From an uncultured Gammaproteobacteria bacterium (GTDB taxonomy: Bacteria; Patescibacteriota; Microgenomatia; CAYQLK01): 64,000 nt of DNA. The position numbers were made by a program, and so were the translations under genes. Of this stretch, positions 1,102 through 20,733 are shown piece by piece (positions within the stretch are counted from its first letter, which is position 1; every line of letters begins with the position of its first letter). The notes under the pieces were generated by a model. It worked only from the letters and a program-made list of their open reading frames with translations, made no database searches and had not been told where the DNA came from. The DNA lies in NCBI GenBank assembly GCA_964404855.1, contig CAYOLO010000001.1:30245-94244 (forward strand), written 5' to 3'.

Positions 1102-1494
1102 TTATTCGACTACAAATATTTTCCCAACCATATATGGGGAAATATGATCATGCATCCCCCATTCACCAACTTTGTCAAAAACGAAACTCCAAGACTCCCC
1201 TGGTTCGATAGTTTTGCGAGGGTCAAAGTCGGAATATTGACTGTGCGAAGGGTGCAAGTCAGATGCTGGCCAGTGATAAAAAGTGTCAGAATTCTTAAAA
1301 GTTACTTTTGTGCCTTTTGTAATTTTTATTTCATCGGGAATATATCCATCTGAGGTCATTTCTATTACTACTTCTCCTGATTGGGTAATTGGGGTAGGTT
1401 TTGGTGAGTCTTTATGGTTGTTTAGACTATCAGAAGTACTACAACCAAATACAACAAATGGGGTTATAAAAAATATAATATTTTTTAACTTCAT
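1102..1494 (-). CDS. cupredoxin-like domain lipoprotein (free-standing)
   Basis: Signal peptide with a lipobox-like VVFGC. The motifs HWPASDLHPSH and WGMHDHISPYMVGKIFV are paralogous to the N-terminal domain of the 6847-8298 protein. Confidence 0.55.
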   Translation of the reverse strand: MKLKNIIFFITPFVVFGCSTSDSLNNHKDSPKPTPITQSGEVVIEMTSDGYIPDEIKITKGTKVTFKNSDTFYHWPASDLHPSHSQYSDFDPRKTIEPGESWSFVFDKVGEWGMHDHISPYMVGKIFVVE

Positions 1495-4009: not shown

Positions 4010-4064
4010 GATTTAATTATTTTGTGGCATATTAACGAATTATTTACTAACAAATCAAGGGTAA

Positions 4065-5234
4065 TTATTGTTGTTTTGTTTTATTAACAGAATCAAGACA
4101 AATTTCTTTTTTGTCAGAACTTAAAATATTACAAATATCGTTAATTTTTTCAGCTCTATTTGAAGAATTCATTCTTAATACAATTGCATCGAAACACTCT
4201 TTGGACTTAATTGGGTCAAAAGATGAACAAATTTCTACTCCTTTTCTAACTAAGGGGTCCGACATTACGCTTGATTCAAGCACACCAGAATAACATTCCT
4301 TTAGGTAGTTTTTTAAATACTGCGTACAAAAAGTCTCAAGTTTTTTATTGTCGCCCTGATAAACAAAAAACATATTTTGACCCAATGCACTTACACAACC
4401 ACCAACAAAACTACTTGGAACACTAATACAGGCATTTACAGACTCTTGTTCAGAATTATTTCGGATATATGCGTGAGTACCTGCGGTTATGTAACAAGTT
4501 TCTGCATATGTACCCCAAAGCGTTCCGCAAAATTTGGCAATATCATCAGGAAATTCTAATAATGCATGATCAAAACTAGATGGTTCGTATAATTCCATAA
4601 TTACACCTGCCCCACAATTTCTTTGCCCCTCTGTTGAATCTATTAGATCACAATACTTTAAGGATTGAGTCAAATCAAACCCTGATAAGTCAGCAACACC
4701 ATGACCTAACCCGTGAAAACAATCTGAATTGGTTGAAGCCTCTACTCCATTAATTTGATTTTTACAAAGAATTCCAATATTGTCCAAAATTTTGTACCCT
4801 GTCGAAATTGCGCCTTCAACAACACCATGAAAGCAGCCGGAAGTACAAATATTGGGACATTCTAAAATAGTTTTATTTAAATCTTTGGAATATGCACCAG
4901 CGGTTTGACCAACTGCATGTGCCACATCATGACACTGGTTAATACCGCCGCGATCAAAATCAACAGAATACAAATAGCGATTTTCTAACTCAGCCATCAT
5001 TGGCTTTAATCCAAATGTCTTGACTCCTTTTTCAAGGTTTTTTTTGTAACAAACAATATATTTAGTTCTTTCTTTGCTTTCTGAGCAGTTTTTGCTAGTT
5101 AAATCAAATATTTGAACTATTTCTTCGTTCGATTCTGTATTATGTTTCGAAGGATTATTGGTAAAAAAAAGCGAATATGCTACCCCAACAAAAAAAATGA
5201 GTACGAACGAAGCTATACGAAGTATCCTTGTCAC
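4065..5234 (-). CDS. secreted Cys/His-rich paralog family member 3
   Basis: Motifs CHDVAHAVG, CTSGCFHGV, CFHGLGHG and GVIME. Confidence 0.6.
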   Translation of the reverse strand: MTRILRIASFVLIFFVGVAYSLFFTNNPSKHNTESNEEIVQIFDLTSKNCSESKERTKYIVCYKKNLEKGVKTFGLKPMMAELENRYLYSVDFDRGGINQCHDVAHAVGQTAGAYSKDLNKTILECPNICTSGCFHGVVEGAISTGYKILDNIGILCKNQINGVEASTNSDCFHGLGHGVADLSGFDLTQSLKYCDLIDSTEGQRNCGAGVIMELYEPSSFDHALLEFPDDIAKFCGTLWGTYAETCYITAGTHAYIRNNSEQESVNACISVPSSFVGGCVSALGQNMFFVYQGDNKKLETFCTQYLKNYLKECYSGVLESSVMSDPLVRKGVEICSSFDPIKSKECFDAIVLRMNSSNRAEKINDICNILSSDKKEICLDSVNKTKQQ

Positions 5235-5262
5235 AAGTTTGGTAGATAAAGCTTAAAAATAT

Positions 5263-5829
5263 TTATGGAATATTTATGTATCCGCTTTCTTTATCGTCAC
5301 ATTGAAGACCATAAAATCCAATACCGTTTCCAAAGTCAGCAATGACCTTAATTGAGTCATTTGCTTTGAGGTCATAGCTTTTTTCCCAAATTTTTAGCTT
5401 GTGATTAACCTTATCTTTATTTTTAATTTCAAATTCTTTACCTAAGCCGATTTTGGCAACTTTTGGTGTAGCTTCACAATTGGATAATTCGACAATATTA
5501 GTATCTACCGAATTTTTGAAAAGATCTTGAATTTTTGCATCACTCGTAGAGTTTTCCTGCTTAACATCCTGTGAAGCATTATTGGACTTGGCTGGTACAG
5601 TATCTGATTGAGAAATGTTGATTATTTTATTAGAAAAAAACTTATTTCCAAATATGTTGCCCAAGAAAAGAGCTGATGCTAAAAAAGCTACCAACGCAAT
5701 CCCGTTTGCAATTTTAGAGAAAAATGTTTTTTGAGAGTGTTTAACCTCTTTACTTGATTGAGAAGCTTTTTTTCCTTTAACTGTTGTTTTTTTTACGGTT
5801 TTGTTTGGCATTTGTTTGTAATTACACAA
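5263..5829 (-). CDS. hypothetical membrane-anchored protein
   Basis: Lys-rich N-terminus followed by a TM helix. No recognised domain. Confidence 0.4.
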   Translation of the reverse strand: MCNYKQMPNKTVKKTTVKGKKASQSSKEVKHSQKTFFSKIANGIALVAFLASALFLGNIFGNKFFSNKIINISQSDTVPAKSNNASQDVKQENSTSDAKIQDLFKNSVDTNIVELSNCEATPKVAKIGLGKEFEIKNKDKVNHKLKIWEKSYDLKANDSIKVIADFGNGIGFYGLQCDDKESGYINIP

Positions 5830-6890
5830 TAATACTGATTCATTTTATCATGACAGGACTTGGCAAAATCTGTGGATAACAAGTCGCAAAATCCCATAGA
5901 GTCTTGTTTGCCTATACCTAATAATACTTCAACGCTTTTTTCGATGCAATAACTTTGATAGCTGCCGCCTGATATTGACATACAGATTTCTTTGACTTTA
6001 TTGCCTTGATATCCATCGACTACAGGAATCATTCTTCCAATGCCACCAAAACAATTTTCTTTTGCTGTTTTTTCAACAACCCCCTCACATAACTCAACCA
6101 TTTTTTGGAAATCATTAAAATAAACCCCTGCCCACCATGCTGGTTGTTCAAAGTAACAATCATTGGCATATTTATCGTTGATTTCGTTGCACGGCTCAAG
6201 AGGATTATTATTGTCAAGAGGCCTTAATTCGATTTCACCCGAATCTAAACTTTGCATTGTTCGTGTGTTGTATTCCATGAATACTCCATTATTACAACCG
6301 TTAATGGATGATATTGAAGACAAGCTTTCACAGTCTTTTAATGCGCTTTTTAGTCCTTCGAGATCGTAACCATTTAGGTACAAAACTCCATGGCCTAATC
6401 CGTGTATACAACCACCGTATTTTAGTGGCTGACTACCATCGCCAAAGCAATATTTGTCTCCAGATTGATATAAGTCTTTTCCCTCTTTTTCAAAGGCTTT
6501 AATAAAAAACCCGTGATAGCAACCATATGAAAATGCTTCGTCACAAATTAGTAACCCATCCATACCTCCATGAGAGTATATTTCCGTGCCTATCCAATGA
6601 GCTAGATTATGAACTTTGGTTTGGTCGATTTGACTATATCGATTTTTAAACACCTCGTACACCTCTTTATTTGATAAGCTGTTAAATACTTTTGTCAAAA
6701 TTGCCTTTTCTGTTCGGTAATCATAAGTGCTGTTAGTTACAACTGGAAGAGTCTCCTCGGTGTTTTGATTGTTATTTGAAAAAAAAACTGTCCCTACTAC
6801 GCCGACAATTATCAATATTATTGACCCACTAATGAATATGGTTTTTTTAATTTTTGTCAGTTTCACAAACATATTGATATTCTTTTTCAA
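5793..6890 (-). CDS. secreted Cys/His-rich paralog family member 4
   Basis: Motifs VHNLAHWIG, SYGCYHGF, CIHGLGHG and GVFMEY. Confidence 0.6.
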   Translation of the reverse strand: MKKNINMFVKLTKIKKTIFISGSIILIIVGVVGTVFFSNNNQNTEETLPVVTNSTYDYRTEKAILTKVFNSLSNKEVYEVFKNRYSQIDQTKVHNLAHWIGTEIYSHGGMDGLLICDEAFSYGCYHGFFIKAFEKEGKDLYQSGDKYCFGDGSQPLKYGGCIHGLGHGVLYLNGYDLEGLKSALKDCESLSSISSINGCNNGVFMEYNTRTMQSLDSGEIELRPLDNNNPLEPCNEINDKYANDCYFEQPAWWAGVYFNDFQKMVELCEGVVEKTAKENCFGGIGRMIPVVDGYQGNKVKEICMSISGGSYQSYCIEKSVEVLLGIGKQDSMGFCDLLSTDFAKSCHDKMNQYYCVITNKCQTKP

Positions 6891-8298
6891 TTTTCGAACA
6901 TAGGCTTTTTATTTTTTCCTCTGAAAAACTATTAATTGTCATTAATGAATAAAGATCTGAATAGCAGTTCTTCTTACCTTCACCAAGACTTGCAAGTTGA
7001 CATAAATTAAAGGGGGCGTTTTGGTCACCCAAGGCAAAAAGTGAATTGCTTATACCTGCAATACACCTATCTGCTAATTTTTGCTTCATATACGAGCAAT
7101 AAAGTTGAATTAATTTGGGGTCGTTCTTGGTTGCGGTACTGATAATTCTTCCAATATTATTTGCACATTCAACTTGATACTTGTCAGGAATTAGATCACA
7201 ATTTTTAGCAGTTTTTTTAATATCTCCTTTATTTACCCTGAACCACCAACTTGCTTGTTCTAAATAACAATAAGATTGATGTTTATCATCAAATTTATTA
7301 CATGGGAGTAATAAATCATTTTCGCTTAGAAATGGATGTTTGTCGGGAGTAAACCCATTGTGATCGCCTAAAGTATTCTCCATAAACGCTCCAATATAGC
7401 AATGTTTAAGATCATCTTCTTTATAATCACCCAACTGTTCACAGGTATCAATTGCTTTAAAAATATCATAATCTGCTTCCGCAGTAAATGCGTGTCCAGC
7501 AGCATGCAAACACATTTGGTTTTTGAAAATTGACAGTGTTTGACAGTGCTGCATCATTGACCTCACACCATCTAGGCCTATATCTGAAATCGCTGTAATA
7601 ACTACACCGTGTGAACAGCCATTTAATTCATCATTTTGACAAATTGGCAGAGCTTTTTCTTCGTACATTTCATATGCTACTTCTCCAATAATATGAGCTA
7701 CAAGATGAGTTTCACCAAATTTGGTAATCGGAGATTCGTTTAATAATTCTATGGCTATTTCAGGACCGACTTTGTGTGCCAAGGTCCTAGCAAGGGTCAG
7801 TCTTTTTGGTGAATTTTCATTCTTCTCTATTTCCCTCATTAACACTTTGCCTTCTTCTTTCGTCCACGATAAATCGTCATTATCGCCATAGAAAGAAATG
7901 ACTTTAATTTTTCCTCCCATGCTGGGGTTTAAATGATCATGAAAAAACCAGGTGCCATTATTTTGAATTTTAAACTTCCAGGATTCTCCAGGTTTTATTG
8001 GCGTTTGTGAGTCGAACTCGGGATAATTTTGATGGGTGGGATGTAAATTAGAAGCGGGCTGATGAGAAACGGTGTCATTGTTGATAAAAGTAATTATCGA
8101 GCCACTAGAAACTAAAACTTTTCTTGGTTCAAAACCATTACCTGTAATGACAATATCAATATTTTTATTTTGAGGAAGATATAAAGGTATGGCTGAGAAA
8201 TTAAAATCTTTAACATTAACTACCCCTGATACAAACACAAAAACGACTAATGCAGAAATTATCGGCAAAATAACTGGAATAATTACTTTCTTAATCAC
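6847..8298 (-). CDS. cupredoxin-like domain fused to Cys/His-rich paralog (family member 5)
   Basis: The N-terminal domain (HQPASNLHPTH, WFFHDHLNPSMGGKIKV) is paralogous to the 1102-1494 protein. The C-terminal half carries HLVAHIIG, NGCSHGV, CLHAAGHA and GAFME. Confidence 0.6.
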   Translation of the reverse strand: MIKKVIIPVILPIISALVVFVFVSGVVNVKDFNFSAIPLYLPQNKNIDIVITGNGFEPRKVLVSSGSIITFINNDTVSHQPASNLHPTHQNYPEFDSQTPIKPGESWKFKIQNNGTWFFHDHLNPSMGGKIKVISFYGDNDDLSWTKEEGKVLMREIEKNENSPKRLTLARTLAHKVGPEIAIELLNESPITKFGETHLVAHIIGEVAYEMYEEKALPICQNDELNGCSHGVVITAISDIGLDGVRSMMQHCQTLSIFKNQMCLHAAGHAFTAEADYDIFKAIDTCEQLGDYKEDDLKHCYIGAFMENTLGDHNGFTPDKHPFLSENDLLLPCNKFDDKHQSYCYLEQASWWFRVNKGDIKKTAKNCDLIPDKYQVECANNIGRIISTATKNDPKLIQLYCSYMKQKLADRCIAGISNSLFALGDQNAPFNLCQLASLGEGKKNCYSDLYSLMTINSFSEEKIKSLCSKIEKEYQYVCETDKN

Positions 8299-8328
8299 AG
8301 GATTAGTTTAAACAATTAGTTGGAAATA

Positions 8329-9078
8329 TTATATACAGGTTTTGTGTATATAACTTGCTGCTGTTTCTTTTGGCACAAAGCAAGCTGCGGTCGAAGTACC
8401 TTTTTCACTCGTCTGAATCAAAATTGGAGCTCTAACACTAATACCTAATTTATCTCCCGAGCTCGAACTAGCTACAGATGCACAATCTTGAATTGTACCC
8501 CCGTCGGGACTTTCAGGGTTGGTGATACCAGAACAAGCAAGTTTGCCTACTAAGTCAACATATTCTTTGTTGAAATATGCCGTAATTGAAGTCTCTGCCA
8601 GTTTTTGATTAACATTGGCACCTGTGTCTAGGGCCCACGTTCGAATGTATCTCGGAGTATTGTTTGAGGTACCAGTCACATATAAAACAAAAAATGCTTT
8701 ACTATTAACTGTCCATGTTCCAACATAAACATCGCCTGTTTCCTCTGCTTTTGTAACAAGTTTAATTTCAAGTGAGGTTGGCTTGTACTCGTTTTGATAC
8801 ACTTTTGTGAAAATGTCAGAAATATAACTTAATCCAGACTCTGGAAGGTCAGTGGAATAATTAATTCCCCCAATATTTCTTCCAACTGTATTTTCTTGCG
8901 GTGTTGGTACTAAGTTGGGTTTTTTACTTAAAAAATTGCTGTTTATAAAATTAAAACCTAAACCAAATATTGATCCAATTCCAATTAATATAAGTATGAA
9001 AATAATATATTTAACAATCGACCCGCTTGGCCTATTTGCTTGAGAATTACTGATGTTTTTTTGGGTTTTAGTTTTCAT
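8329..9078 (-). CDS. hypothetical secreted/membrane-anchored protein
   Basis: N-terminal TM helix. No recognised motif. Confidence 0.4.
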   Translation of the reverse strand: MKTKTQKNISNSQANRPSGSIVKYIIFILILIGIGSIFGLGFNFINSNFLSKKPNLVPTPQENTVGRNIGGINYSTDLPESGLSYISDIFTKVYQNEYKPTSLEIKLVTKAEETGDVYVGTWTVNSKAFFVLYVTGTSNNTPRYIRTWALDTGANVNQKLAETSITAYFNKEYVDLVGKLACSGITNPESPDGGTIQDCASVASSSSGDKLGISVRAPILIQTSEKGTSTAACFVPKETAASYIHKTCI

Positions 9079-9127
9079 TTTGTTACAAGGTAATTATATG
9101 CAAGCAGCTTGAGTATGGCAAATTGAA

Positions 9128-10390
9128 TTAATCTCCAATATTTATACTCTGTCCAGACCCTTTGTCGACCAAACACAAATCTCCGTACTTTCTGTTTTTT
9201 TCACTGCAAGTTTTTTTTACACTGTCGCCAGAGAATAAACCAGAATTCGACATTGTATAAATCATAGCAAAACATTTTGACGCAAAATCGTTATTCTCAA
9301 GACTGTCGCAAAAATCTACGGTTTGAGATAATTTTTCGGGCACAGTGGAGAGTGTGCTGCCGACGATATTAGCATAGCACTGATTTTCAAACTCGGGATC
9401 TAAAGCTTGAGGGATCTTACACAATTTGGACATTTTGTTTAAGTCAAACCCGTAGCTCGCTGTCAGAATACCTATGGCATGTGTTTTACATTTATTTCTG
9501 CCTTCTGTTGATGGAGATTCATTACACAGGTCAAAAACTTTGTTCGGTTCTTGTGAATATTTAACTACAGCCGCGTGTGTTATTTCTTCCCAACAAGCCA
9601 TCGCAATTGGATCAGAATATTTTTTACACATTAGTTCCATTTCATCAAGCCTGGCCGACCAGTCTAAATATTTTTCTGTCACAATTTTGTGATCAATCAG
9701 ATTAAGAGCGGTGATGTTTTCCATAAATACGCCTTGATTGCAGTAGTGGTTTTGAAGTGTTTGAGTAAATACCTTACAAGTATTGAGAGCTTCATCAATA
9801 TCACCACCAAATGAAACCAGAACTATATGACCGACAATATGATTACAATCGTTAATTGGATTATCACCACAGACAGAAATGATATTTTCATTAGTGATTT
9901 TGCCTTCAGGTAATGTTCCAATATAGGCTTCCACTATTCCATGCTGAGCTCCATAGTTACAAGTTTGGTTGATTTTGGGCAGATTCTGGCGCCAGTTGCT
10001 AGGATCTTTTAAATACTCACCTGTTCCTATTCCATGTGCAATCCAATGACAACCAAGTGCCACGATGTCGATTTTTTTCAACTCCTCAAGTTTTTTAAAG
10101 GCGTAAACGCTGCCATGCTGAGCTGAAATTTTCTTGAACTCCGAAGAATAACAATATTCCCTACTGTCAAGAAAAGTTGACTGATATTTTTCTGAACATT
10201 TTGTAAATATTGAATATATGTCTTGATTGTTATTGTCCTTATTTAGATTAGAGTTAATAAAAATAAAAGTAAGAATAGAAGAAATAGAAATAATCAGTAC
10301 ACCTAAGATAATCTTTATAGATTTGTAAGACCTTGAGTTTCTTTTTTGCAATTTTGAAACGCTGATTTGTTTGATTTTATTGACTGACAT
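9128..10390 (-). CDS. secreted Cys/His-rich paralog family member 6
   Basis: Motifs GCHWIAHGIG, DCNHIVGHI and GVFMEN. Confidence 0.55.
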   Translation of the reverse strand: MSVNKIKQISVSKLQKRNSRSYKSIKIILGVLIISISSILTFIFINSNLNKDNNNQDIYSIFTKCSEKYQSTFLDSREYCYSSEFKKISAQHGSVYAFKKLEELKKIDIVALGCHWIAHGIGTGEYLKDPSNWRQNLPKINQTCNYGAQHGIVEAYIGTLPEGKITNENIISVCGDNPINDCNHIVGHIVLVSFGGDIDEALNTCKVFTQTLQNHYCNQGVFMENITALNLIDHKIVTEKYLDWSARLDEMELMCKKYSDPIAMACWEEITHAAVVKYSQEPNKVFDLCNESPSTEGRNKCKTHAIGILTASYGFDLNKMSKLCKIPQALDPEFENQCYANIVGSTLSTVPEKLSQTVDFCDSLENNDFASKCFAMIYTMSNSGLFSGDSVKKTCSEKNRKYGDLCLVDKGSGQSINIGD

Positions 10391-11334
10391 AAGGTTTGAC
10401 CAATTTCTTCAAAATTTTGATATTTTTGAGAATAAACTTGTCTGACTGCTCCGATTATACAGTAGCTTAACCAATTATTAGCTGTAAGATTACAAGTTTG
10501 GATGATTTTTTCTGCATTAGCTTTAGACTCGAATACAATGAAGTAGCCTAGACTTACAAAACATTCCTCTGCCACCCTGTTCAAAGTAATTCGCTCACAG
10601 TCGCTGATTATTTTTTTTATATCCCACGAATGCTTGTTGGCGTAAACATTAAAAACGTACCTAGAACAATTATTTTCATATTCAATCTCGATACCTGAAC
10701 ACCTTTTTATAAACTCCTCTTCGTGTCCTGTATATAGCTCTGGATGCTCTGAGTACTCCATAAAAACACCGTCGTAGCAATAACTTCTGTTTTCATTTTG
10801 AAATGCCTTGCAGTCGATCAATGATGATTCAAGATTATTATTGTTTGCACCAAAGAGACCATGACCAGACCCGTGAATACATCCGGATAAAAAATCGGGG
10901 TTTAATCTAAATGTTTCTGTGCAAACTTTTTCTATTTCTGGTATTACACTTTTACCGAGAGTTAGTATTGTGCTTTCAGTAATCCCATGAAAACAACCAT
11001 AACTAAATGTTGCGTCACATATTTTAAGACCATCAACGCCGAATTTTTTGAATGCAGAATTGCCGACAATGTGAGCAAACTGGTGAACATCATCAATTGT
11101 TTGGTTATCTTTTGTAAATTTGTTTTTTAGAAAAATCCAGGATTCTTGTGGGTCTTCCATTGCTGCTTTTGAAAAAGATTCAAGCTTTTGCTGATATGTT
11201 AAAGAATCAAAATTAGAAAGCGGATTAGTTTTTTGTGGGTTATTCCGAACTAAAAATAATCTTAATGCTGCAAAAATAAAGACACAAACAAGCAGAATAC
11301 AAATTAGTTTGATATTTTTACTCTTTCTGAACAT
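10315..11334 (-). CDS. secreted Cys/His-rich paralog family member 7
   Basis: Motifs VHQFAHIVG, SYGCFHGI, CIHGSGHG and GVFMEY. Confidence 0.6.
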   Translation of the reverse strand: MFRKSKNIKLICILLVCVFIFAALRLFLVRNNPQKTNPLSNFDSLTYQQKLESFSKAAMEDPQESWIFLKNKFTKDNQTIDDVHQFAHIVGNSAFKKFGVDGLKICDATFSYGCFHGITESTILTLGKSVIPEIEKVCTETFRLNPDFLSGCIHGSGHGLFGANNNNLESSLIDCKAFQNENRSYCYDGVFMEYSEHPELYTGHEEEFIKRCSGIEIEYENNCSRYVFNVYANKHSWDIKKIISDCERITLNRVAEECFVSLGYFIVFESKANAEKIIQTCNLTANNWLSYCIIGAVRQVYSQKYQNFEEIGQTLCQSIKSNKSAFQNCKKETQGLTNL

Positions 11335-12470
11335 ATTTTTTTATTTTCTTCACTTTCTACTACCTTGCATGCGTTCAAATGATCAGATATTGATAACCAT
11401 CTGGTAAAAACCCAAGATACCCTTTCAAAGCAATAGGGTTGATACTCACTCTGAAGGGTGGTACAAAAATCAACAGCTTGAATTAATGCAGCATTCTGTC
11501 CGCCAAATTTATCATCAAAAGCGCTTACGATACCTAAATAGCAAAATAGTTTCTGTTTGCTTGTTCCGTTAACTACATTACATATATCTTTTAATTGCAA
11601 AATGTTTTCAGCGTTTGGCATAACGCTACTTCCAATTGCGCCAAAACATTCGTCTTGAGCAGATTCTGGTATGTTCTGGCAAAATTTACTTGTCTCTGTC
11701 CAATTACCATGACCAATATGGTTATGATAAATCGTTAGAAAAATATAGCACTGCTCTTGGAAGTTTGTTGCAAGCTTATTACATGGGTATAACTTATCTG
11801 ATGTTGTTGGAAGATATTTAGAAGGTAAATCGGTGCTTGAACTTTGAGGAAAATTTTCCATGAATACTCCCCCGTAGCAAGTAGATTTTTGAATATTTAA
11901 TTCATCACAAAGTAGCAATGAGTCAAATAATTCGTAGTTTTTTGCAACCATAATTGCATGCCCAACACCATGAATACATTGTTCCAGAAAACCTTGTTGA
12001 TTTTTTTCGATAAAAATATCACAAGCGCTTTGCATTTTTTCTTTGAACTCCAAGCTCTCGGGGGATGAGGAGAGGCTACTGAGTAAGCCAATCACAACAC
12101 CATGATAGCAAGCATTAAAATATACAGGCGTACACTCAATAAATACTTCGGCCAGGTTTTGGCTTATAAAATATTTTTCCATTGATAAAAAATGTAAATA
12201 ATCATGAAACTGGTAAGGGGTATCTTTCGCTTGAATTATTTCCAATGCCTCAAGAATATCTGTAAAGGAATATTGACTTAAATCACTTATAGCCAGTTTT
12301 CTGGTACAGGAGTTTCTGGAAGATGACTCATTACACTCTGATATGTTTATTGGTAAAGAATCAACTAAGGCTAAGTTTTGATTATTCGCTTTGAACAAGT
12401 TTTTTAAAACAAAACACGAAAGAAAAAAAGTAGTTAACCAAAAAAAAATAAGTAATTGTTTTATTTTCAC
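11304..12470 (-). CDS. secreted Cys/His-rich paralog family member 8
   Basis: Motifs FHDYLHF, NACYHGV, CIHGVGHA and GVFMEN. Confidence 0.6.
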   Translation of the reverse strand: MKIKQLLIFFWLTTFFLSCFVLKNLFKANNQNLALVDSLPINISECNESSSRNSCTRKLAISDLSQYSFTDILEALEIIQAKDTPYQFHDYLHFLSMEKYFISQNLAEVFIECTPVYFNACYHGVVIGLLSSLSSSPESLEFKEKMQSACDIFIEKNQQGFLEQCIHGVGHAIMVAKNYELFDSLLLCDELNIQKSTCYGGVFMENFPQSSSTDLPSKYLPTTSDKLYPCNKLATNFQEQCYIFLTIYHNHIGHGNWTETSKFCQNIPESAQDECFGAIGSSVMPNAENILQLKDICNVVNGTSKQKLFCYLGIVSAFDDKFGGQNAALIQAVDFCTTLQSEYQPYCFERVSWVFTRWLSISDHLNACKVVESEENKKICSERVKISN

Positions 12471-12477
12471 TTGAACA

Positions 12478-12909
12478 TCAAAGACTTAAAAATCCTTTTG
12501 AATATTCAAATCCAAACAGAGACTTAAATGGCTTGTCGTCAGTTATATCAATTAACCTTTCACCTGTAGTGTCTTCAATTAGTTTGACTGTGTAATTTGA
12601 AATTTCTGGGTCAATTTTTTGAACTTGCGGTTTGATTGTTTTGATTTTTACATTTTTGTGATTTCCTTTTGTTAAAAAATCTGTTCCACCTAAAAATAAA
12701 CCGGTATTTCTATCTGATTTTGCGTGCTGAAATATAGAAGCAAATCCATTTCCTGGCATGTTAATAGAGTCTATAACTACCTCATCGGCAATAGCTTGTG
12801 AAGTTATTGAGATACTTAAATTCTTTGCTCTAAAATAGTCAATCCATACGAGGGCTGCAAAGATAGCGATTATTATTAATGGAATTAGGAAAACGAATAT
12901 TTTTTTCAT
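12478..12909 (-). CDS. hypothetical membrane-anchored protein
   Basis: N-terminal TM helix. 143 aa. Confidence 0.4.
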   Translation of the reverse strand: MKKIFVFLIPLIIIAIFAALVWIDYFRAKNLSISITSQAIADEVVIDSINMPGNGFASIFQHAKSDRNTGLFLGGTDFLTKGNHKNVKIKTIKPQVQKIDPEISNYTVKLIEDTTGERLIDITDDKPFKSLFGFEYSKGFLSL

Positions 12910-12924
12910 TAATTTAAGAGCATT

Positions 12925-13569
12925 GTGATGTATAATTTTACTATAAAAGTTATGAGAGCAAAAATTATTATCGTTATTGTTTTGACTGGGACTATTTTGG
13001 TTCTGGCATTTTTATTATTTAGACCAAGCGGCGATCAAAAGTCAAAAGAAAATTCTGCCTCAATTAAACCTAAGGCCTTAACAACAATAACGAGCGAAAC
13101 TAAAAAGCAAACTAATGAAGAATTTGGAATTAGGTTTGAATATCCCGCTAACTATGAACTAACTGAATCTATTGCAACCAGCCTGTATGGATCAACGGAG
13201 GCAGTTGCTTATACATTTATTGATACAACTAGGCCATATATTGCACCAGTTAAATTAAGTTTTTATAAAATTTTAGAAATAAAAACAATTGAAGAGTTAG
13301 TATCTATATTAAAAATTGATTTTCCTAATATTACTACTCAAACTTGTAAACCACAGAAACAAAATACCATTTGTGTCGCACTACTTACAAAAGAGGGTGA
13401 ACCCCAACCACCGTTTCATTTTATAAAACAGTATGATTTTGGACTGACTGCTACGACGATGGACTTTCCTGAAAAAGATACAGTTCTTTATGACGATTAT
13501 GATCAAAATGGTGTAAGCCTAGATGACCCACTAGCTAAAGTGTTTAGTACTTTAGAAAGGACGGAGTAG
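12925..13569 (+). CDS. hypothetical secreted protein
   Basis: N-terminal TM/signal. No recognised domain. Confidence 0.4.
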   Translation: MMYNFTIKVMRAKIIIVIVLTGTILVLAFLLFRPSGDQKSKENSASIKPKALTTITSETKKQTNEEFGIRFEYPANYELTESIATSLYGSTEAVAYTFIDTTRPYIAPVKLSFYKILEIKTIEELVSILKIDFPNITTQTCKPQKQNTICVALLTKEGEPQPPFHFIKQYDFGLTATTMDFPEKDTVLYDDYDQNGVSLDDPLAKVFSTLERTE

Positions 13570-13590
13570 AAAAAAACTTCAAAGTAATTT

Positions 13591-14724
13591 ATGTATAAAC
13601 TTGTTTTTATTTTGACAAGTCTGGGAGTTGTTGTAATTAGCTATATCTTGATTTTTTTGTTTATTCATAATTACATAAAATCGACAGCATTACTGCTTGA
13701 AATTTTCCCATTAATTGAACCAAGACCGTTATCGGTTCTTGAAAAAGAGCCTATTAAGAAGGAAGTGGAAATAATTTCAGGAAAAAATATTTTAAAAACC
13801 GATATTTGGATACCTGGAGATTTAGATGACAAAAAAAAATATCCTGCAATAATTTTATCGGCAGGTGTTAATTTACCAAAAGACGATCATAGAATTCTTG
13901 CAACCATTAAGGGTTTGGCAAAAAGTGGTTTTGTTGTAGTAGTGTCAGATGTTCCGGAACTGCTTGCGTCAAGATACCTAAGTAGTACGATTAACGATTT
14001 TGTAAATATTTTTCAATTTGTTGAAGAGCAGCCATATGTTGAAAAAACAAAGGTTGGCTTCGCTGGATTTTGCTTAGGATCATCATTCGCATTACTGGCA
14101 TCTAGCGAAGAAGAAATTAGAGATAGGGTTTCATATATTCTTGTTAATGATGTTTTGTATGATATGTATAAATTTACAAGAGACGCTGTTACCGAGAAAA
14201 TTAACGACAACGAACCGGTTATTGATTGGTACGCGGAGGACGAAACAAGAGAGATACTTTACCGAGAATATTCTGACTATATTATTGATGACAAGGAGGG
14301 ATATTTGATTTTTCAAACGCTTTTTAAGCGAGAAAGATTAACCGAGGAACAGTACAAAAATTTATCAAATGATGGTAAAGTTTTTTATGACTTTTTATCC
14401 AATACCGACCCAAACAAATCGCCTGAGTTATTTGCCAGACTCCCAGAAGAAGCAAAAAAAATTATTGATAATATGTCCCCAAAAACAAAAATTCGTGATG
14501 TGAAAGCCAAATTGTTTGTGACTTCAGGCAGAAATGTATTTTTGCCAGCAAGCCAAGCAAAAGATTTAGTTAACGACCTTCCGAAGGATCAAGTTTCTTA
14601 TACGAGCTTGGAGTTTTTTCAACACGACAAGACGGTAAAATCTGAAAATGCTTTTGAAAATATAATTCAAGCCATGTTTGCAATAAAACATTTAAAAAAT
14701 GTTTTTGATTTTGTTCAGCACTAA
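13591..14724 (+). CDS. membrane-anchored alpha/beta-hydrolase (dienelactone-hydrolase-like)
   Basis: N-terminal TM helix. Nucleophile-elbow-like GFCLGSSFA. Fold-type similarity only. Confidence 0.45.
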   Translation: MYKLVFILTSLGVVVISYILIFLFIHNYIKSTALLLEIFPLIEPRPLSVLEKEPIKKEVEIISGKNILKTDIWIPGDLDDKKKYPAIILSAGVNLPKDDHRILATIKGLAKSGFVVVVSDVPELLASRYLSSTINDFVNIFQFVEEQPYVEKTKVGFAGFCLGSSFALLASSEEEIRDRVSYILVNDVLYDMYKFTRDAVTEKINDNEPVIDWYAEDETREILYREYSDYIIDDKEGYLIFQTLFKRERLTEEQYKNLSNDGKVFYDFLSNTDPNKSPELFARLPEEAKKIIDNMSPKTKIRDVKAKLFVTSGRNVFLPASQAKDLVNDLPKDQVSYTSLEFFQHDKTVKSENAFENIIQAMFAIKHLKNVFDFVQH

Positions 14725-14730
14725 GAATAT

Positions 14731-15582
14731 TTATTTCGAAATATAAATCATCCCGATTCCCATTCCGTCTATTTCACTATTTGATTGGTTATCATATTCT
14801 GCATAGAAATCAATTAAGTCACCTTTTCTCACTATTTGTTGATTTTTTTTGTAAGTAAAATAAGGAATTTTTTGAATATTTGTAAAATCGGGACTCGGTG
14901 ATATTTTGTAGCTAGCGTCTCCAATTTTTATTGTGATTTCTTTGCCGTAATTGTGCAAATGTCCACCAATATAGACAACCTTGCCGTTGTCGGGAGCATA
15001 AACCTTAGGGTCGATTGTTAAAGTTTGTTTGGTTTTAGCTGGAATATAAAAAGTGGGATCGTTCGTACAGTTTTTGACATCAACCCAGATTGGCTGTACA
15101 GGAATTAGTTGTGAAAAAAAGTTTTTTGGCTTGGTTTTGAATGTAAACCGAATTTTAATATCGTCTAGTTTTTTTGGTGTGGGATTAATTAAATGATTAA
15201 TTACCGCAATACCATCTGTACGATTAATCGGATAGCCATACCCTTTAGGTAAAACTAGTGGACTTATCTCTTTGCCGTTTGCGTGAATTCTTTCTTTAAA
15301 AACATTGGGGCATGTGTAATCTGGTTTGCTTAGATTCTCTAAAATCACATGATGGATAGTTTCTCTCTCAGCACCCACGACCTCATAATCAATATTGGTA
15401 ATCCAAAATGATTGTTTGGGAAAAAACTTAATAAAATCATACTTTCCAATATAGTCGTTTTCGGCAATAGTATAGCTATGGCTAGTAAGAACAATTGTTT
15501 GAGGTGAGGTAAACTTTGTAAAAATAAAACAAAGTACTAAAATCGTAATCCAAATATAAATTTTTTTCATAAATCGAGACAA
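14731..15582 (-). CDS. secreted protein with copper type-II monooxygenase (PHM/DBH)-like signatures, paralog 1
   Basis: HHVILEN...C, RIHANG, GGHLHNYG and C-terminal IDGMGIGM. Pattern HH / H / HxH..G / M as in peptidylglycine alpha-hydroxylating monooxygenase (PHM). About 280 aa, compatible with two beta-sandwich domains. Confidence 0.4.
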   Translation of the reverse strand: MSRFMKKIYIWITILVLCFIFTKFTSPQTIVLTSHSYTIAENDYIGKYDFIKFFPKQSFWITNIDYEVVGAERETIHHVILENLSKPDYTCPNVFKERIHANGKEISPLVLPKGYGYPINRTDGIAVINHLINPTPKKLDDIKIRFTFKTKPKNFFSQLIPVQPIWVDVKNCTNDPTFYIPAKTKQTLTIDPKVYAPDNGKVVYIGGHLHNYGKEITIKIGDASYKISPSPDFTNIQKIPYFTYKKNQQIVRKGDLIDFYAEYDNQSNSEIDGMGIGMIYISK

Positions 15583-15587
15583 TTTTA

Positions 15588-16574
15588 GTGTATGATATTA
15601 GTGTCAATTTAGCTATGAGAATAACACATCACAGACAACTATTTTTTTTGATTAGTATTGCATTTATTACTATCGTAATTTTAATTTTTCAAAAAAATCA
15701 TTCAAATGATTTGAGTAGAAAAAATGTTTTTGAATTTTTTACAGACCCAATTGAAATTAAGGCAAACTCAAAACCAGTTGATTTAATGAAAGGCGTTGAG
15801 ACGAACCTTTATTCAAATGGAGAGTTTGTAGTGCCAATGGATGGATATATAAAATCATATAATCCAGAGGCTGTAAATGCGCCAAAAGAATCAATGAGAT
15901 ACACCTACGCATTTAAGGTTGGAGAAAAAGATCCAGTGTGCAACAAAAAAGATGAATTGGCGCATGTGGTATCTATTGAATATAACGAAATGCACTACTA
16001 CTCAAAATTTGGTTATGGTTACAAAGTTAACAAGGGAGACAAAATACATTTTAGTTCTGCGTTTGCTAATTTTTCGAATATCGATCTGAAAAATGTCCAT
16101 ACAAAATTTAGAATCGAAATGGCTGAAATGAGCGAAAATTTAATTCCTGTCACGCCTGTTTATCTAAATGCCGTACCTTGCACTTCAATGTTTTTTGTTC
16201 CTGCAAAAACTAAGGACTATGTCAAATCAATGGAGATTCCATATGAAGTACCGTTTGATAGTAAATTAATGATGGCAGGATCACACGGACACAACTACAC
16301 TGACACAATATCTTTAATTAAAAATGGCAAACCAATTTGGACTACTGGACCTTTGCTAACAGACAATGGAATGAACGCAGGCAACCCAATTTATCTAAAT
16401 GTAGGCGGAATTGGATATGCCAACGATGGAGTAAGGTTTAAAAAAGGAGACAAATTATCAGTATCAATAAAAATGACCAATCCAAAAGATACACAAATTG
16501 ACGGAATGGGCACAATGTTAATTTTTCTAATTCCTGATTCTGGAGATCAGATTTTTCCCAATGCTGCTCACTGA
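15588..16574 (+). CDS. divergent paralog of PHM-like family (CuH site apparently degenerate)
   Basis: Keeps SHGHNY and IDGMGTM and the shared FVPAKTK block. Lacks the HH pair. Confidence 0.35.
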   Translation: MYDISVNLAMRITHHRQLFFLISIAFITIVILIFQKNHSNDLSRKNVFEFFTDPIEIKANSKPVDLMKGVETNLYSNGEFVVPMDGYIKSYNPEAVNAPKESMRYTYAFKVGEKDPVCNKKDELAHVVSIEYNEMHYYSKFGYGYKVNKGDKIHFSSAFANFSNIDLKNVHTKFRIEMAEMSENLIPVTPVYLNAVPCTSMFFVPAKTKDYVKSMEIPYEVPFDSKLMMAGSHGHNYTDTISLIKNGKPIWTTGPLLTDNGMNAGNPIYLNVGGIGYANDGVRFKKGDKLSVSIKMTNPKDTQIDGMGTMLIFLIPDSGDQIFPNAAH

Positions 16575-17500
16575 TAATTTAAATAAATGATTGATGATGC
16601 CATAGCATCGATTTCTTTATCAAGCGGATTTTCATAAAGTCCTTCTATTTCAATTTTTTGCCCACCATATACTTTGAAATTTTGATTATCAATATCACTA
16701 AAGAAATTTATTTTTTTGATTACCCCATCCTCAGATTCGGGAATATAGTTTATTTCCACGTCACCAACTTTGAGTTTTAGATTTTTGCCATAGTTGTGAA
16801 GATGTCCCCATGCATATAATAATCTTGCGCTGGTCGGGACTGTGTCTGGATAAGTTAATGTTAATGTCTCGGACGTTTTTGGCGGAATAAAGACGCTGGT
16901 GTCCCATTCGCATTTTTTCACATCAACCCAGATTGGGTGAGCAAATCGCAGCCTTCTAATGAAAGACTCTGGCTGAAAATGAATCTTAGCTTTAATTTTT
17001 ATATTTTTGTACTCTTCTTTTGTTGTGTTATATAAGTGAATATAAGTTCCTAATTGTTCTTTTTGTTTCATATAATAACCGAAGCCAGCGGGTAGATATA
17101 AAGGAGTAAACTCTTTAGCGGTGGCATGTAGCCTGTCGGGGAAAAAGTTGGGGCATGCTCTATCTCGTCTAGAGTTGTTAACTAAAATTGCATGATGGAC
17201 TCTTTCTTTGGGCGCTCCAGTTATTTCGAACTCCACCCCTGTTATCCATCCATTACTAGGAATTGAATGTTTTTTAAAATTATAGATTCCATACTCGTTC
17301 CCAGACTCAAGAACTAGAGAATCGCTTTCCACTTCAAATATTTTGTCCTTAAAAAAATATAAAGATGAGAAAGAAATAATAAAAAATATAAACCAGAGAA
17401 ATACAATTTTTTTATGTAAGAACATGCGTTGTACTATTGTATAATATCTATATTCGATTACCAATGATTCGGGCATTATTTTTGGGTATATTTTTTTCAT
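16568..17500 (-). CDS. secreted protein with PHM/DBH-like copper monooxygenase signatures, paralog 3
   Basis: RVHHAILVN...ACPNFF, RLHATAKE, WGHLHNYG and EIDAMAS. Confidence 0.4.
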   Translation of the reverse strand: MKKIYPKIMPESLVIEYRYYTIVQRMFLHKKIVFLWFIFFIISFSSLYFFKDKIFEVESDSLVLESGNEYGIYNFKKHSIPSNGWITGVEFEITGAPKERVHHAILVNNSRRDRACPNFFPDRLHATAKEFTPLYLPAGFGYYMKQKEQLGTYIHLYNTTKEEYKNIKIKAKIHFQPESFIRRLRFAHPIWVDVKKCEWDTSVFIPPKTSETLTLTYPDTVPTSARLLYAWGHLHNYGKNLKLKVGDVEINYIPESEDGVIKKINFFSDIDNQNFKVYGGQKIEIEGLYENPLDKEIDAMASSIIYLNYQ

Positions 17501-18636
17501 TTTTAATTTCGTTTTTAGTAGGTTTTGGCCTTGTAAAATTAGGTGTAAGTTTTGCTAGTAATAATATTGAAGACAAAGAGCTTGCCTTGTTTATGAAGAC
17601 TTGTATAAATGATAAGGACAAAGACCATTGTTATGACAAGGTAGCTGAACAATTAGCAAATAAATTTACTTTTGATCAAATTAAGACTTTTATGGTTAAA
17701 AATCTCACAGCTCAGGAGCTGGATAATTGTCACACAATTTCGCACAATATTGGGAAAGAAGTCTATAAAAAAACCGGTGATTATTTAATTACTTTTACAG
17801 GATCTAACTTGGAATTATGTATTTATGGGTTTTCACATGGAGCACTAATGCAGTATTTCAAAACCACAGGTTTTGAGGATGCAGGCGATAAAGAAAAAAT
17901 TAAAAAAATATTTATTACTGTTTGCCAAAAAGGTGAAACAATAAAAGAAGTGAGTCAACATGTGGAGTGTGTTCATGGATTGGGACATATTGCGATGATA
18001 CTTTCAAACAATTCATTGAAAGACTCACTAGAAATTTGCGATCTTTACGATAACGATGTTTATAGCAAAATGTGTTATGGGGGAACTTTTATGGAAAATT
18101 TTATGAATACCTCGGCAGGCTCTAGAAACCGACTAGTCGAGGGAGAAAATTTTGACAAGCCTTGTAGCGTTATAGATTCGAAGTACTGGGATTTATGCTA
18201 CTACTGGAAAGGTGCATTCTTTTTTGTGACATCTAAAGGTAATTTTACTAATGCGGTTAGTTTGTGTTTGAATGTTCGAAAGGATTATGAGAAGGAGTGT
18301 TTAAAAAGAATGTCGAGGGTTTATACACAAGCAAATACAGGAAAACTAAAGGAAATATATTCTAATTGTCAAAAATTAATGTTTAATAATGGTATTGAAA
18401 GCTGTATTACTGGAGCAGTCGAATCAATAATCGGCGATGTTGGAGACAAAAAATATTTACGCGATTTTTGCAATATGACAGGAGATAAAATTGATATTTG
18501 TTACGGAGTATTTATGAAAGCAATTGAAGAATGGGGATCAGATACAAAAGAAGAGCTGGAAAAAGAGTGTAACTTTTTATTGGACCTGAACTACAAAAAT
18601 AGATGCATGACTAATTTAGGAAAAAAATTCCTTTAA
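17437..18636 (+). CDS. secreted Cys/His-rich paralog family member 9
   Basis: Motifs CHTISHNIG, LCIYGFSHG, CVHGLGHI and GTFMENF. Confidence 0.55.
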   Translation: MYNIYIRLPMIRALFLGIFFSFLISFLVGFGLVKLGVSFASNNIEDKELALFMKTCINDKDKDHCYDKVAEQLANKFTFDQIKTFMVKNLTAQELDNCHTISHNIGKEVYKKTGDYLITFTGSNLELCIYGFSHGALMQYFKTTGFEDAGDKEKIKKIFITVCQKGETIKEVSQHVECVHGLGHIAMILSNNSLKDSLEICDLYDNDVYSKMCYGGTFMENFMNTSAGSRNRLVEGENFDKPCSVIDSKYWDLCYYWKGAFFFVTSKGNFTNAVSLCLNVRKDYEKECLKRMSRVYTQANTGKLKEIYSNCQKLMFNNGIESCITGAVESIIGDVGDKKYLRDFCNMTGDKIDICYGVFMKAIEEWGSDTKEELEKECNFLLDLNYKNRCMTNLGKKFL

Positions 18637-18709: not shown

Positions 18710-19741
18710 ATGGGAGGTAAAAAAACAAATAAAAAAAATGCAATTGTTTTAGAAACGCAAGAATATGTCAAATTAAAAAACTCAATTGAACAAGAAGGAA
18801 TATTAAATAGATCATATTTTTATTACTCATTACTTGCCTGTTGTGACTTATTAATATTTGCGCTTTCAATTATTGCTGTTTTTATCTCAACTAATATTTG
18901 GTTAATTGTAATATTTTCAGCAATGGTTGGTTTTTTTGCGGTCAGAATGGGTGGACTTATGCATGACGCTGGACATCAAGCTATTTTTAGGAGTGAAAAA
19001 AATAATGATATTGCAGGATATATATTTGGAACATTAGCAACGATTGCTTTTGCTGGATGGAAATCTTCACATAGTGCCCACCATGCGAACCCCAATCAAG
19101 AGGATGAAGACCCAAATGTTGAATTACCAATTTTGTCGTTTAATGTTGAAAGGTATCAATCAAAAAAGGGGTTGTCCAAACTGCTTAGAAAATATCAAAT
19201 GTATTTGTATTACCCACTTCTTATTAGTGTTGGTTTTGGTATGAGAATTGCGGATATTTTTTATTTTAAAAGCTCATTTAAACTACCAAAGCTTTGGCAG
19301 TTGGAGATTTTTTTAATTGCATTTTTCTGTATATATTTCTTACCTTTTTTAGTCTTTCCTTTTACTAAAGCTGTAGTAGTTGTGATTGTTTCAAATATTG
19401 TTACCGGAATTTATTTTTCTACAATATTTGCCCCAAACCATAAAGGTATGTATGAGCCCAAAAAAGGCGAGCGCTTGTCTTTTATTAAACATCAAATTAT
19501 TACTTCGAGAAATATAAATTCGAACCCAATAACTGATTATGTTTTTATGGGATTAAATTACCAGATTGAACACCATCTATTCCCAATGTGTCCGAGGAAT
19601 AAATTAAAATACATTACTCCACATGTTGCGAAGGTTTGCGATAATCAAAAATTGGAATTTACTAAAGTTTCTTTTATTAGATCTAATTTAATTATTCTTG
19701 AATCACTAAAAACAGTTGTCACTAAGGCAAGTACTATTTAA
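18710..19741 (+). CDS. membrane fatty-acid desaturase family protein
   Basis: Three His boxes (HDAGHQ, HSAHHANPN, QIEHHLFP) and multiple TM helices. Confidence 0.75.
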   Translation: MGGKKTNKKNAIVLETQEYVKLKNSIEQEGILNRSYFYYSLLACCDLLIFALSIIAVFISTNIWLIVIFSAMVGFFAVRMGGLMHDAGHQAIFRSEKNNDIAGYIFGTLATIAFAGWKSSHSAHHANPNQEDEDPNVELPILSFNVERYQSKKGLSKLLRKYQMYLYYPLLISVGFGMRIADIFYFKSSFKLPKLWQLEIFLIAFFCIYFLPFLVFPFTKAVVVVIVSNIVTGIYFSTIFAPNHKGMYEPKKGERLSFIKHQIITSRNINSNPITDYVFMGLNYQIEHHLFPMCPRNKLKYITPHVAKVCDNQKLEFTKVSFIRSNLIILESLKTVVTKASTI

Positions 19742-19743
19742 GA

Positions 19744-20733
19744 CTAATCCGTAACACATTGTGCGTATACACCCCTCATTCTCTCTGGCAATAGTTTGGC
19801 AATTTGAACTCCTAAAATGTCAGCATTATTAATGTTAGATTCTGGATTATTCTTATCTCTGCTTATGGTAAAAGACTGACCTATTCTCATTTGATAGGTG
19901 GATTTTGCGCGATTAAACCAAAAACCGATTGGTAACATAGGAACCCTCATGGCGCCAGCTAATTCGGCTAACTTACCAGCCATAGGATCAACTTGATGTA
20001 ACTCAAATTCGTCCTTTCCAGTAGGATATAAGATAAGAACATCACCGTTCCGAAATACTTTTGGAATTTCTCGGGAGTGAGTATTTGTTGGAATCATTCC
20101 AAATACCACAGAGGTGTTAAACAAAACTTGATTTGCAACATTGTTGGCCTGACCGACAACTTTTTCAACGCTAGCATGAATGCTTTGACTTATTGGTGGT
20201 GTCAAATGTGGATAAACCAAATTAAGGCGAGTATTTTTTTCTGTTTTTTCTACAAGTCTTTTTTCATTTTCGATAACTGGAATAAAATTTCTTGTTTCCC
20301 CATCAGGCAGATGTTCACTCACAGCATGAGCCATAATCGGAGCCTGAGGCATGCCTTTGTGTATGCCACGATTGAAGTGATTCGAAATAATAACAAATGA
20401 TCCTGTTTGGGGAATATGTTCCTGACCAGATACATTAACACCGTGTTCAAAGTATGATTTTAATTTTTCGTCTTTTAAGGGATGGGAAAATGGGTTACCG
20501 TTTGCAATATCAACAAGTACTTGTTCAAATGCTGCTTTGGCCGTTGGATCCTTAAGGTTTTGGCCTGGACCACTATATTCCATAGATAAATGATAAGCTC
20601 GCATTCCAATACGCTCAACTTTGTTTAGGGGGCGGGTAGCGTCAGGTTTTTCAAAATAATATGGCTCTTTTTCTTTCATAAAGGTTTTTTGAGTTTGGCA
20701 AAGTATATTACTACTAATCAGGCTGAAAAACAA
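19744..20733 (-). CDS. acyltransferase (LPLAT)-like protein with degenerate HX4D motif; start likely at the internal MKEKEPYY
   Basis: ISNHFNRG, YPTGKD and VPMLPIG resemble LPLAT motifs I, III and IV, but the catalytic Asp is absent. Confidence 0.3.
   Translation of the reverse strand: MFFSLISSNILCQTQKTFMKEKEPYYFEKPDATRPLNKVERIGMRAYHLSMEYSGPGQNLKDPTAKAAFEQVLVDIANGNPFSHPLKDEKLKSYFEHGVNVSGQEHIPQTGSFVIISNHFNRGIHKGMPQAPIMAHAVSEHLPDGETRNFIPVIENEKRLVEKTEKNTRLNLVYPHLTPPISQSIHASVEKVVGQANNVANQVLFNTSVVFGMIPTNTHSREIPKVFRNGDVLILYPTGKDEFELHQVDPMAGKLAELAGAMRVPMLPIGFWFNRAKSTYQMRIGQSFTISRDKNNPESNINNADILGVQIAKLLPERMRGVYAQCVTD

Follow-up and report, generated by a model that had tools for sequence, protein, structure and literature searches.

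A divergent bacterial protein family with a predicted PHM/DBH-type fold and candidate copper sites

Three paralogous genes at one locus

The 64,000-nucleotide stretch of contig CAYOLO010000001.1 analysed here (the window), derived from an uncultured bacterium, contains three neighbouring genes for proteins that we term paralogs A, B and C (Table 1). A preliminary description, made from the sequence of the window, had proposed that these proteins are paralogs carrying the copper-site signatures of peptidylglycine monooxygenase (PHM) and dopamine beta-hydroxylase (DBH). We found all three open reading frames (ORFs) exactly where they had been placed, and the paralogy was borne out by significant pairwise similarity, with 35% identity over 278 residues between A and C (E 3e-60), 25% between A and B (E 1e-18) and 23% between C and B (E 2e-17). 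The true start of A is likely Met5 (codon 15568-15570) and that of C likely Met26 (codon 17423-17425), and B possibly starts at Met10 (15615).

The three genes alternate in strand with nearly no intergenic DNA (15568-15617, 16568-16574 and 17425-17500). The start codons of A and B are separated by 5 nt as called, a distance that grows to about 45 nt with Met5 and Met10 as the starts. B and C overlap by 7 nt at their 3' ends, and the 5' end of C as called overlaps the ORF of the next gene by 64 nt. This head-to-head and tail-to-tail order is kept in the loci L001, L005 and L007. Because the order is conserved with so little intergenic DNA, the promoter of each gene must lie inside or against its neighbour. 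Each of the three proteins starts with a hydrophobic segment, which is predicted as a helix in the structural model of A (residues 2-25), suggesting that A, B and C are membrane-anchored or secreted with their bodies outside the cytoplasm.

The predicted fold of paralog A

We modelled A by AlphaFold2 (AF2) from a 74-sequence alignment, which resulted in a mean pLDDT of 95.8 and a pTM of 0.89. The N-terminal transmembrane helix (residues 2-25) is followed by two beta-sandwich domains spanning approximately residues 28-152 and 160-282. Both domains are all-beta, in agreement with the two-sandwich core of the PHM type that had been proposed from the sequence, and the model thus has the two-domain architecture of the catalytic core of the PHM/DBH class. 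The Foldseek comparison with PHM suggested in the preliminary description was run against the PDB. The top 30 matches were all PHM (ranks 1-28) or human DBH (ranks 29-30), with E values of 1.6e-11 to 2e-8, a probability of 1.00 and TM-scores up to 0.64. The next matches were viral double-jelly-roll capsid proteins (E of about 1e-6, TM-score of about 0.35), and PNGase F-type proteins were not the best match either. The closest solved fold to the model of A is clearly that of PHM.

The TM-scores of the model were highest against closed crystal forms, namely the citrate complex of the H108A variant of PHM (6ala, 0.61-0.62) and chain A of DBH (4zel, 0.64), as compared with 0.45-0.54 for open PHM entries. 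The predicted domain arrangement of A is therefore compact. In the closed entries 6ala and 4zel_A the two coppers are brought near each other.

Candidate copper ligands in A and C

To place the conserved His and Met residues relative to PHM, we used the rat PHM core, identical to chain 1sdw_A, as the reference, in whose numbering the known ligands fall on H107, H108, H172, H242, H244 and M314. A PHM profile of 42 sequences, all with PF01082 and/or PF03712 and most with both, was aligned by hhalign with profiles of the new family built from 74 or 273 sequences. The local alignment gave an E value of 0.002 and a probability of 13.8% with the 74-sequence profile, and 4.2e-5 and 70% with the 273-sequence profile, for which the global alignment reached 2.8e-7 and 89%. 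The register was identical in all profile-profile runs, which superseded an alignment to a single PHM sequence that covered only the LPKGxGF segment (probability 1.9%). H77 and H78 of A align with H107 and H108, and H130, within NHLINP, with H172, the three ligands of the CuH site of PHM. H208 and H210 fall exactly on H242 and H244 of the CuM site, and the segment LPKGYGY of A corresponds to LPKGVGF of PHM. Comparisons of a hidden Markov model (HMM) with sequences scored 17 bits at most. With several true PHM sequences, such alignments agreed with this register within the N-terminal domain, at LPKGxGF and at the strand carrying H172, recovered the HxH region very weakly (-1.9 bits) and left the HH motif uncovered. 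M274 of A lies, like M314 of PHM, in a short loop ahead of the last beta-strand, and the two are likely equivalent.

The preliminary description thus held in its core, the fold and most of the ligands, but the ligand pattern that it proposed needs several amendments. The HxH motif was indeed found in all three proteins (GGHLHNYG in A, WGHLHNYG in C and SHGHNY in B), as was the C-terminal Met within D[GA]M[GA] (M274, M307 and M300 in A, B and C, respectively). The HH pair, likewise ascribed to all three, is present in A (H77/H78) and C (H102/H103) but replaced in B by R104-Y105, so that the CuH set of an HH pair and a third His is found in A and C and not in B. The His in RIHANG and RLHATAKE, put forward as the single conserved His, is not at a ligand position: H100 of A aligns with the non-ligand Y139 of PHM, and in the 273-sequence alignment it is kept only within the clade of the window, most of the family having Gly, Ala, Phe or Leu there. 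From the alignment, the third CuH-type ligand of A would be H130 instead of H100. Likewise, the Cys likened to that of the HHMxxFxC motif lies 13 residues downstream of HH and aligns with C131 of PHM and not with C114. The suggested check that the candidate ligands map onto those of PHM, carried out here by alignment, succeeded for HH and HxH, whereas the Met is placed in the equivalent loop but not in the same column.

Conservation of the candidate sites

Of the 273 sequences of the family, 262 have H77, 264 have H78, 268 have H208, 264 have H210 and 260 have M274 (95-98%), a conservation far beyond chance. A contains seven His residues in total, six of which are the five ligand candidates and H100. 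Position 130 is occupied by Met in 212 of the 273 sequences (78%), and 198 (about 73%) have a His at position 132 on the same strand, within the motif MLHN or M-L-H-N-P-T. The clade of the window has the third CuH-type His at position 130, the same position as H172 of PHM. With M130 and H132 combined, the electron-transfer site may be of a variant His2-Met/His type. In addition, E105, N133, R98, Y263 and N265, none of which aligns with a copper ligand of PHM, are invariant or nearly so.

Paralog B retains only the CuM-type residues

B belongs to the same fold family as A and C, with about seven residues inserted in a loop behind the HxH strand and an extended C-terminus that ends in a single His. 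Its lineage was found in four of four genomes (the window and three syntenic ones), in each of which Arg-Tyr replaces HH and Ala occupies positions 130 and 132, and the HxH motif and the Met are kept. B is also more conserved than its neighbours: identity to the ortholog in L007, the most distant syntenic genome, is 55% for B, 42% for A and 43% for C. The retention of this pattern in four genomes, together with the higher conservation, argues that B is being maintained as a CuM-only form rather than decaying.

A large family without sequence annotation

Neither A, B nor C matched any Pfam-A or NCBIfam model. The Pfam check proposed earlier was run for them and for 74 diverse relatives; the relatives had no Pfam match, and Cu2_monooxygen (PF01082) and Cu2_monoox_C (PF03712), both of which are carried by true PHM homologs, were absent even at E values of 0.1 to 1. 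Sequence searches of the PDB with single sequences or profiles likewise returned no match for the family. Marginal matches to Peptidase_M23 (E 0.06), ActS (18 bits), KAT7 and alanine racemase were dismissed as chance noise. Superfamily-level resources such as Gene3D and SUPERFAMILY may already flag some members.

A word-indexed profile search retrieved 619 relatives, and the 120 listed were all hypothetical or unnamed proteins without a precomputed Pfam domain. When 1.84 billion cluster representatives, each standing for a cluster at 50% identity, were searched exhaustively with an HMM, 2,814 proteins were found at E values of 1e-3 or below, 370 of them at 1e-30 or below. The family thus comprises at least 2,814 clusters, and the earlier remark on the rarity of bacterial PHM/DBH-like enzymes is misleading for the structural family. 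Its members come mostly from soil bacteria. Apart from three close low-GC metagenome-assembled genomes (MAGs), all matches in reference genomes were in MAGs of Actinomycetota, mainly Gaiellaceae and Thermoleophilia, and members from Gemmatimonadales were recognised from the names of protein sources. The whole locus was found in the low-GC MAGs L005 (labelled CAYQLK01; 88% identity to A), L006 (CAYROP01, as is L019; 66%) and L007 (CAYUKQ01; 42%), and in several metagenome contigs.

His-rich C-terminal tails were found in 114 of 270 distant family members (P0006-P0270; e.g. ...HHETGHHEMTQPHH), and A and C have no such tail. The tails fit metal acquisition outside the cytoplasm. At least two adjacent family copies occur in 52 of 68 loci (L008-L083, Gaiellaceae and other Actinomycetota), as counted from rough ORF calls. 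Since spurious long ORFs distorted the clustering of ORF neighbourhoods in the high-GC loci of Actinomycetota, this clustering was used for the low-GC syntenic loci and copy counts only. Some members are about 700-850 residues long or have two matches to the family domain (P0122, P0130 and P0250), and the fusions among long members were single cases of a GT2 glycosyltransferase and a PAP2 phosphatase. Neither bacterial enzymes with a PHM/DBH fold nor this family were described in the searched literature, a library that is incomplete and leaves their absence unproven, and a search on copper and cupredoxins in Patescibacteria gave nothing relevant. Comparative surveys class PHM and DBH with the cuproproteins of eukaryotes, and the table of one such review lists them only there (PMC7435645).

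Genomic neighbourhood

The three genes lie within an island of about 20 kb of genes for membrane-anchored proteins in this clade (Table 1). That a Cys/His-rich array and cupredoxin domains adjoin them, as had been noted earlier, proved real by Pfam matches and alignment. The nine Cys/His-rich paralogs of about 340-480 residues share five invariant His (H-x3-H, GC-x-HG and C-x-HG-x-GH) and about 12 invariant Cys, and have no Pfam match. The modelled neighbour is all-alpha (pLDDT 78), and its fold search returned only generic alpha-solenoid matches (E of 0.017 or above, TM-scores of 0.27 or below) and no functional lead. The array appears to constitute a separate, unknown family. The genes at 12478-14724 occur in identical order in L001, L003, L005 and L007, and the island gene order, including the Cys/His-rich gene next to C, is kept down to 42% identity.

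Table 1. Positions of genes, domains and candidate residues at the locus (coordinates of the window; aa, amino acids)
Feature	Position	Strand	Length	Remark
Paralog A	14731-15582	-	283 aa	ORF list
Paralog B	15588-16574	+	328 aa	ORF list
Paralog C	16568-17500	-	310 aa	ORF list
A, CuH-like ligand candidates	H77 15352-15354; H78 15349-15351; H130 15193-15195	-
A, CuM-like ligand candidates	H208 14959-14961; H210 14953-14955; M274 14761-14763	-
C, CuH-like ligand candidates	H102/H103 17192-17197; H155 17036-17038	-
C, CuM-like ligand candidates	H233 16802-16804; H235 16796-16798; M300 16601-16603	-
B, residues replacing CuH ligands	R104-Y105 15897-15902; A158 16059-16061	+		R104-Y105 for HH; A158 for H130
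B, CuM-type residues	H233 16284-16286; H235 16290-16292; M307 16506-16508	+
Clade-specific Cys pair				A C91/C172; C C116/C197
Cupredoxin_1 lipoprotein	1102-1494	-		PF13473, E 5.6e-9; lipobox FGC; possible copper carrier or electron donor
Eight further Cys/His-rich copies	1500-12470	-		nine paralogs in all
Second Cupredoxin_1 domain	N-terminus of 6847-8298	-		PF13473, E 1.5e-4
DUF7282 protein	12478-12909	-		transmembrane-anchored; Pfam
Protein without assigned family	12925-13569	+		transmembrane-anchored; between the three paralogs and the Cys/His-rich array
Alpha/beta-hydrolase (DLH-like)	13591-14724	+		transmembrane-anchored; Pfam
Cys/His-rich alpha-helical-repeat family member	17437-18636	+		transmembrane-anchored; context only; possible partner or substrate

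A fatty-acid desaturase gene (PF00487, E 1.7e-38) and one resembling acyltransferases (18710-20733) directly flank the island. The desaturase is an O2-dependent membrane enzyme, and its presence here hints at aerobic chemistry on membrane lipids nearby. Around distant family members, the neighbours are unrelated and include MacB/FtsX, an outer-membrane beta-barrel protein, TamB/Omp85, ETF/ETF-QO and a thioredoxin-NHL protein. The last was observed at one locus only and with weak Pfam matches; there, a thioredoxin-like and NHL-repeat protein (L085, 5519-6823) is encoded directly upstream of the family gene. The PAL half of eukaryotic PAM is an NHL beta-propeller. The extracellular copper/oxygen module envisaged in the preliminary description is plausible, but its context is specific to this clade. 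This context supports an extracytoplasmic metal protein and points to neither a substrate nor an electron donor.

The GC content is 32-36% across the region of the locus and up to about 44% elsewhere in the window, which also encodes RNase J, YtxH, a 485-residue IF-2 and many small membrane-anchored proteins. GC and gene content look more like a Gram-positive-type or candidate-phyla-radiation organism, making the title 'Gammaproteobacteria' of the closest MAGs doubtful. A search with Rfam found no RNA within the window, and so no rRNA that could serve for taxonomic placement. Elsewhere in the window, and unrelated to the locus, are genes for an arylsulfotransferase (ASST) homolog (44228-45538, + strand) and the R subunit of a type I restriction enzyme (59441-62566, - strand).

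Interpretation and alternative explanations

We consider it fairly probable that A and C are surface-anchored two-copper monooxygenases of the PHM/DBH type acting on a substrate other than peptidylglycine, and that B is a CuM-only partner or derivative. A and C would be very distant homologs of this two-copper class, in which the three-His site of the N-terminal domain (H77, H78 and H130 in A) would act as the electron-accepting CuH site and the HxH and Met site of the C-terminal domain (H208, H210 and M274) as the O2-binding CuM site. A PHM-like mechanism is most likely: single electrons from an external reductant would enter CuH, and CuM would bind O2 and hydroxylate a C-H bond of a substrate lodged in the interdomain cleft. 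B would receive its electrons from another protein, which might be A, C or a copper protein encoded nearby, or it could be a non-redox binding subunit. Besides the predicted fold, the register and the conservation described above, this interpretation draws on the His-rich tails of the wider family, the predicted N-terminal hydrophobic helix, the consistent loss of CuH with retention of CuM in the better conserved B lineage, and the presence of cupredoxin-like neighbours.

Several observations weigh against this interpretation. No sequence family model detects A-C, and homology to PHM is argued from a predicted structure and a moderate profile-profile score. The coincidence of the ligands was read at the level of alignment. 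M274 and M314 stand in different columns, 4-5 residues apart across a gap, as the loop is 4-5 residues shorter in the family. Furthermore, the CuH site does not appear uniform, its third ligand being shifted within the family. R240 of PHM, the anchor of the peptide carboxylate, corresponds to the family-invariant G206, and N316/Y318 have no counterpart; the positions after the Met are G/I/G/M and not N-x-Y. The absence of these carboxylate-anchoring residues suggests that the substrate differs from a glycine-extended peptide and makes peptide amidation by A and C unlikely. The candidate metal residues of the Cupredoxin_1 domains are only His and Met (YHWP..HPSH..MHDH..M), and the lack of Cys sets these domains apart from the type-1 blue copper proteins that classically carry electrons. 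Moreover, no neighbours related to copper or redox processes are shared among the loci of distant family members, and so the context gives no independent support for redox chemistry.

Some of these features would also suit proteins that handle copper without catalysis, such as extracytoplasmic buffers, chaperones or resistance proteins on a PHM scaffold, in an island that as a whole handles copper. The His-rich tails in 114 of 270 members of the wider family, the nine Cys/His-rich paralogs nearby, the neighbouring cupredoxin-like domains with His and Met only, as is often the case in copper-trafficking proteins, the tolerance of B for the loss of one site and the loss of all substrate-binding residues of PHM are consistent with such a role. 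We nevertheless regard it as possible but unlikely, because the exact catalytic pattern of three His in one domain and two His with one Met in the other is kept at 95-98% over a very deep divergence, which suits a constrained active site better than an unspecific metal sponge. The (near-)invariant E105, N133, R98, Y263 and N265 suggest a defined pocket, and distant members occur outside copper-resistance operons.

A different copper redox chemistry, for example that of an oxidase or peroxygenase, the turnover of superoxide or H2O2, or a closed coupled binuclear site, maybe used for oxidative defence or attack at the surface, would agree with the better superposition of the model on closed PHM/DBH forms and with the missing substrate anchors of PHM. 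However, the domain orientation in an AF2 model is no evidence of the functional state, a Met ligand is typical of mononuclear oxygen activation at CuM in the PHM fold, and no supporting gene context was found, which makes this explanation rather improbable. We give very little credence to the last alternative, a metal-independent double-jelly-roll protein of the PHM/PNGase F type with a glycan- or peptide-binding or amidase-type surface role, in which the His and Met residues would serve purposes other than copper binding. The rare fusions with GT2 and PAP2 point to envelope glycan or lipid chemistry, but the invariant His residues align onto the copper ligands of PHM, and an HH / H / HxH / M pattern is not known to have a role in PNGase F.

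If the two-copper monooxygenase interpretation of A and C is extended to the whole locus, one can picture a naturally 'split' PHM-type surface system in an uncultivated bacterium with a small genome. In this picture, the complete A and C would work with the CuM-only B, which would obtain electrons in trans from A or C, or from the Cys-less cupredoxin-like or the Cys/His-rich helical proteins of the island, without ascorbate. The family, with its at least 2,800 clusters, would be an ancient and previously unrecognised bacterial branch of the noncoupled binuclear copper monooxygenases. Lipids, glycans or peptides of the envelope would provide its new substrates, and it would be the likely source of eukaryotic PHM and DBH. 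Taken with all its parts, this picture is distinctly doubtful.

PHM, DBH and tyramine beta-monooxygenase serve as the textbook examples of noncoupled monooxygenases with two coppers. If A and C prove to be such enzymes, a large bacterial family with this fold and ligand set, which Pfam and NCBIfam do not detect, would extend noncoupled two-copper chemistry beyond its known distribution, broaden its likely origin and bring an O2-dependent copper enzyme to an uncultivated lineage of low GC content. It would also provide small, disulfide-poor and bacterially expressible models for the debated electron transfer from CuH to CuM, and the CuM-only B would be a natural experiment on a CuM site served in trans. 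If the proteins only bind copper, the gain would be a modest one in annotation.

Comparison with known systems

The family resembles PHM (1PHM/1SDW) in the order and similar spacing of the HH pair and single His in the N-terminal domain and of HxH and the likely equivalent Met in the C-terminal domain, in the LPKGxGF/Y motif, and in a location that is lumenal for PHM and presumably extracytoplasmic here. In contrast, it is only 12-14% identical to PHM, lacks the five disulfides of PHM, and has in this clade one different Cys pair. Unlike PHM, A and C are bacterial, are probably held by an N-terminal transmembrane helix, and have no fused PAL domain; ascorbate is unlikely as the reductant for the family. 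DBH and tyramine beta-monooxygenase (4ZEL) share the ligand pattern, and the closed chain A gave the highest TM-score of any match; however, the family has neither a DOMON domain nor a dimerisation domain and shows no match to them at the sequence level. The structural match to double jelly-roll proteins of the PNGase F type (1PGS, 4R4Z and 3KS7) is far weaker; these proteins have no copper sites, and the invariant His and Met residues of the family have no counterpart there. We regard A, B and C as members of a bacterial branch of the PHM/DBH fold that has diverged very far, lacks annotation and includes a conserved paralog with a single site.

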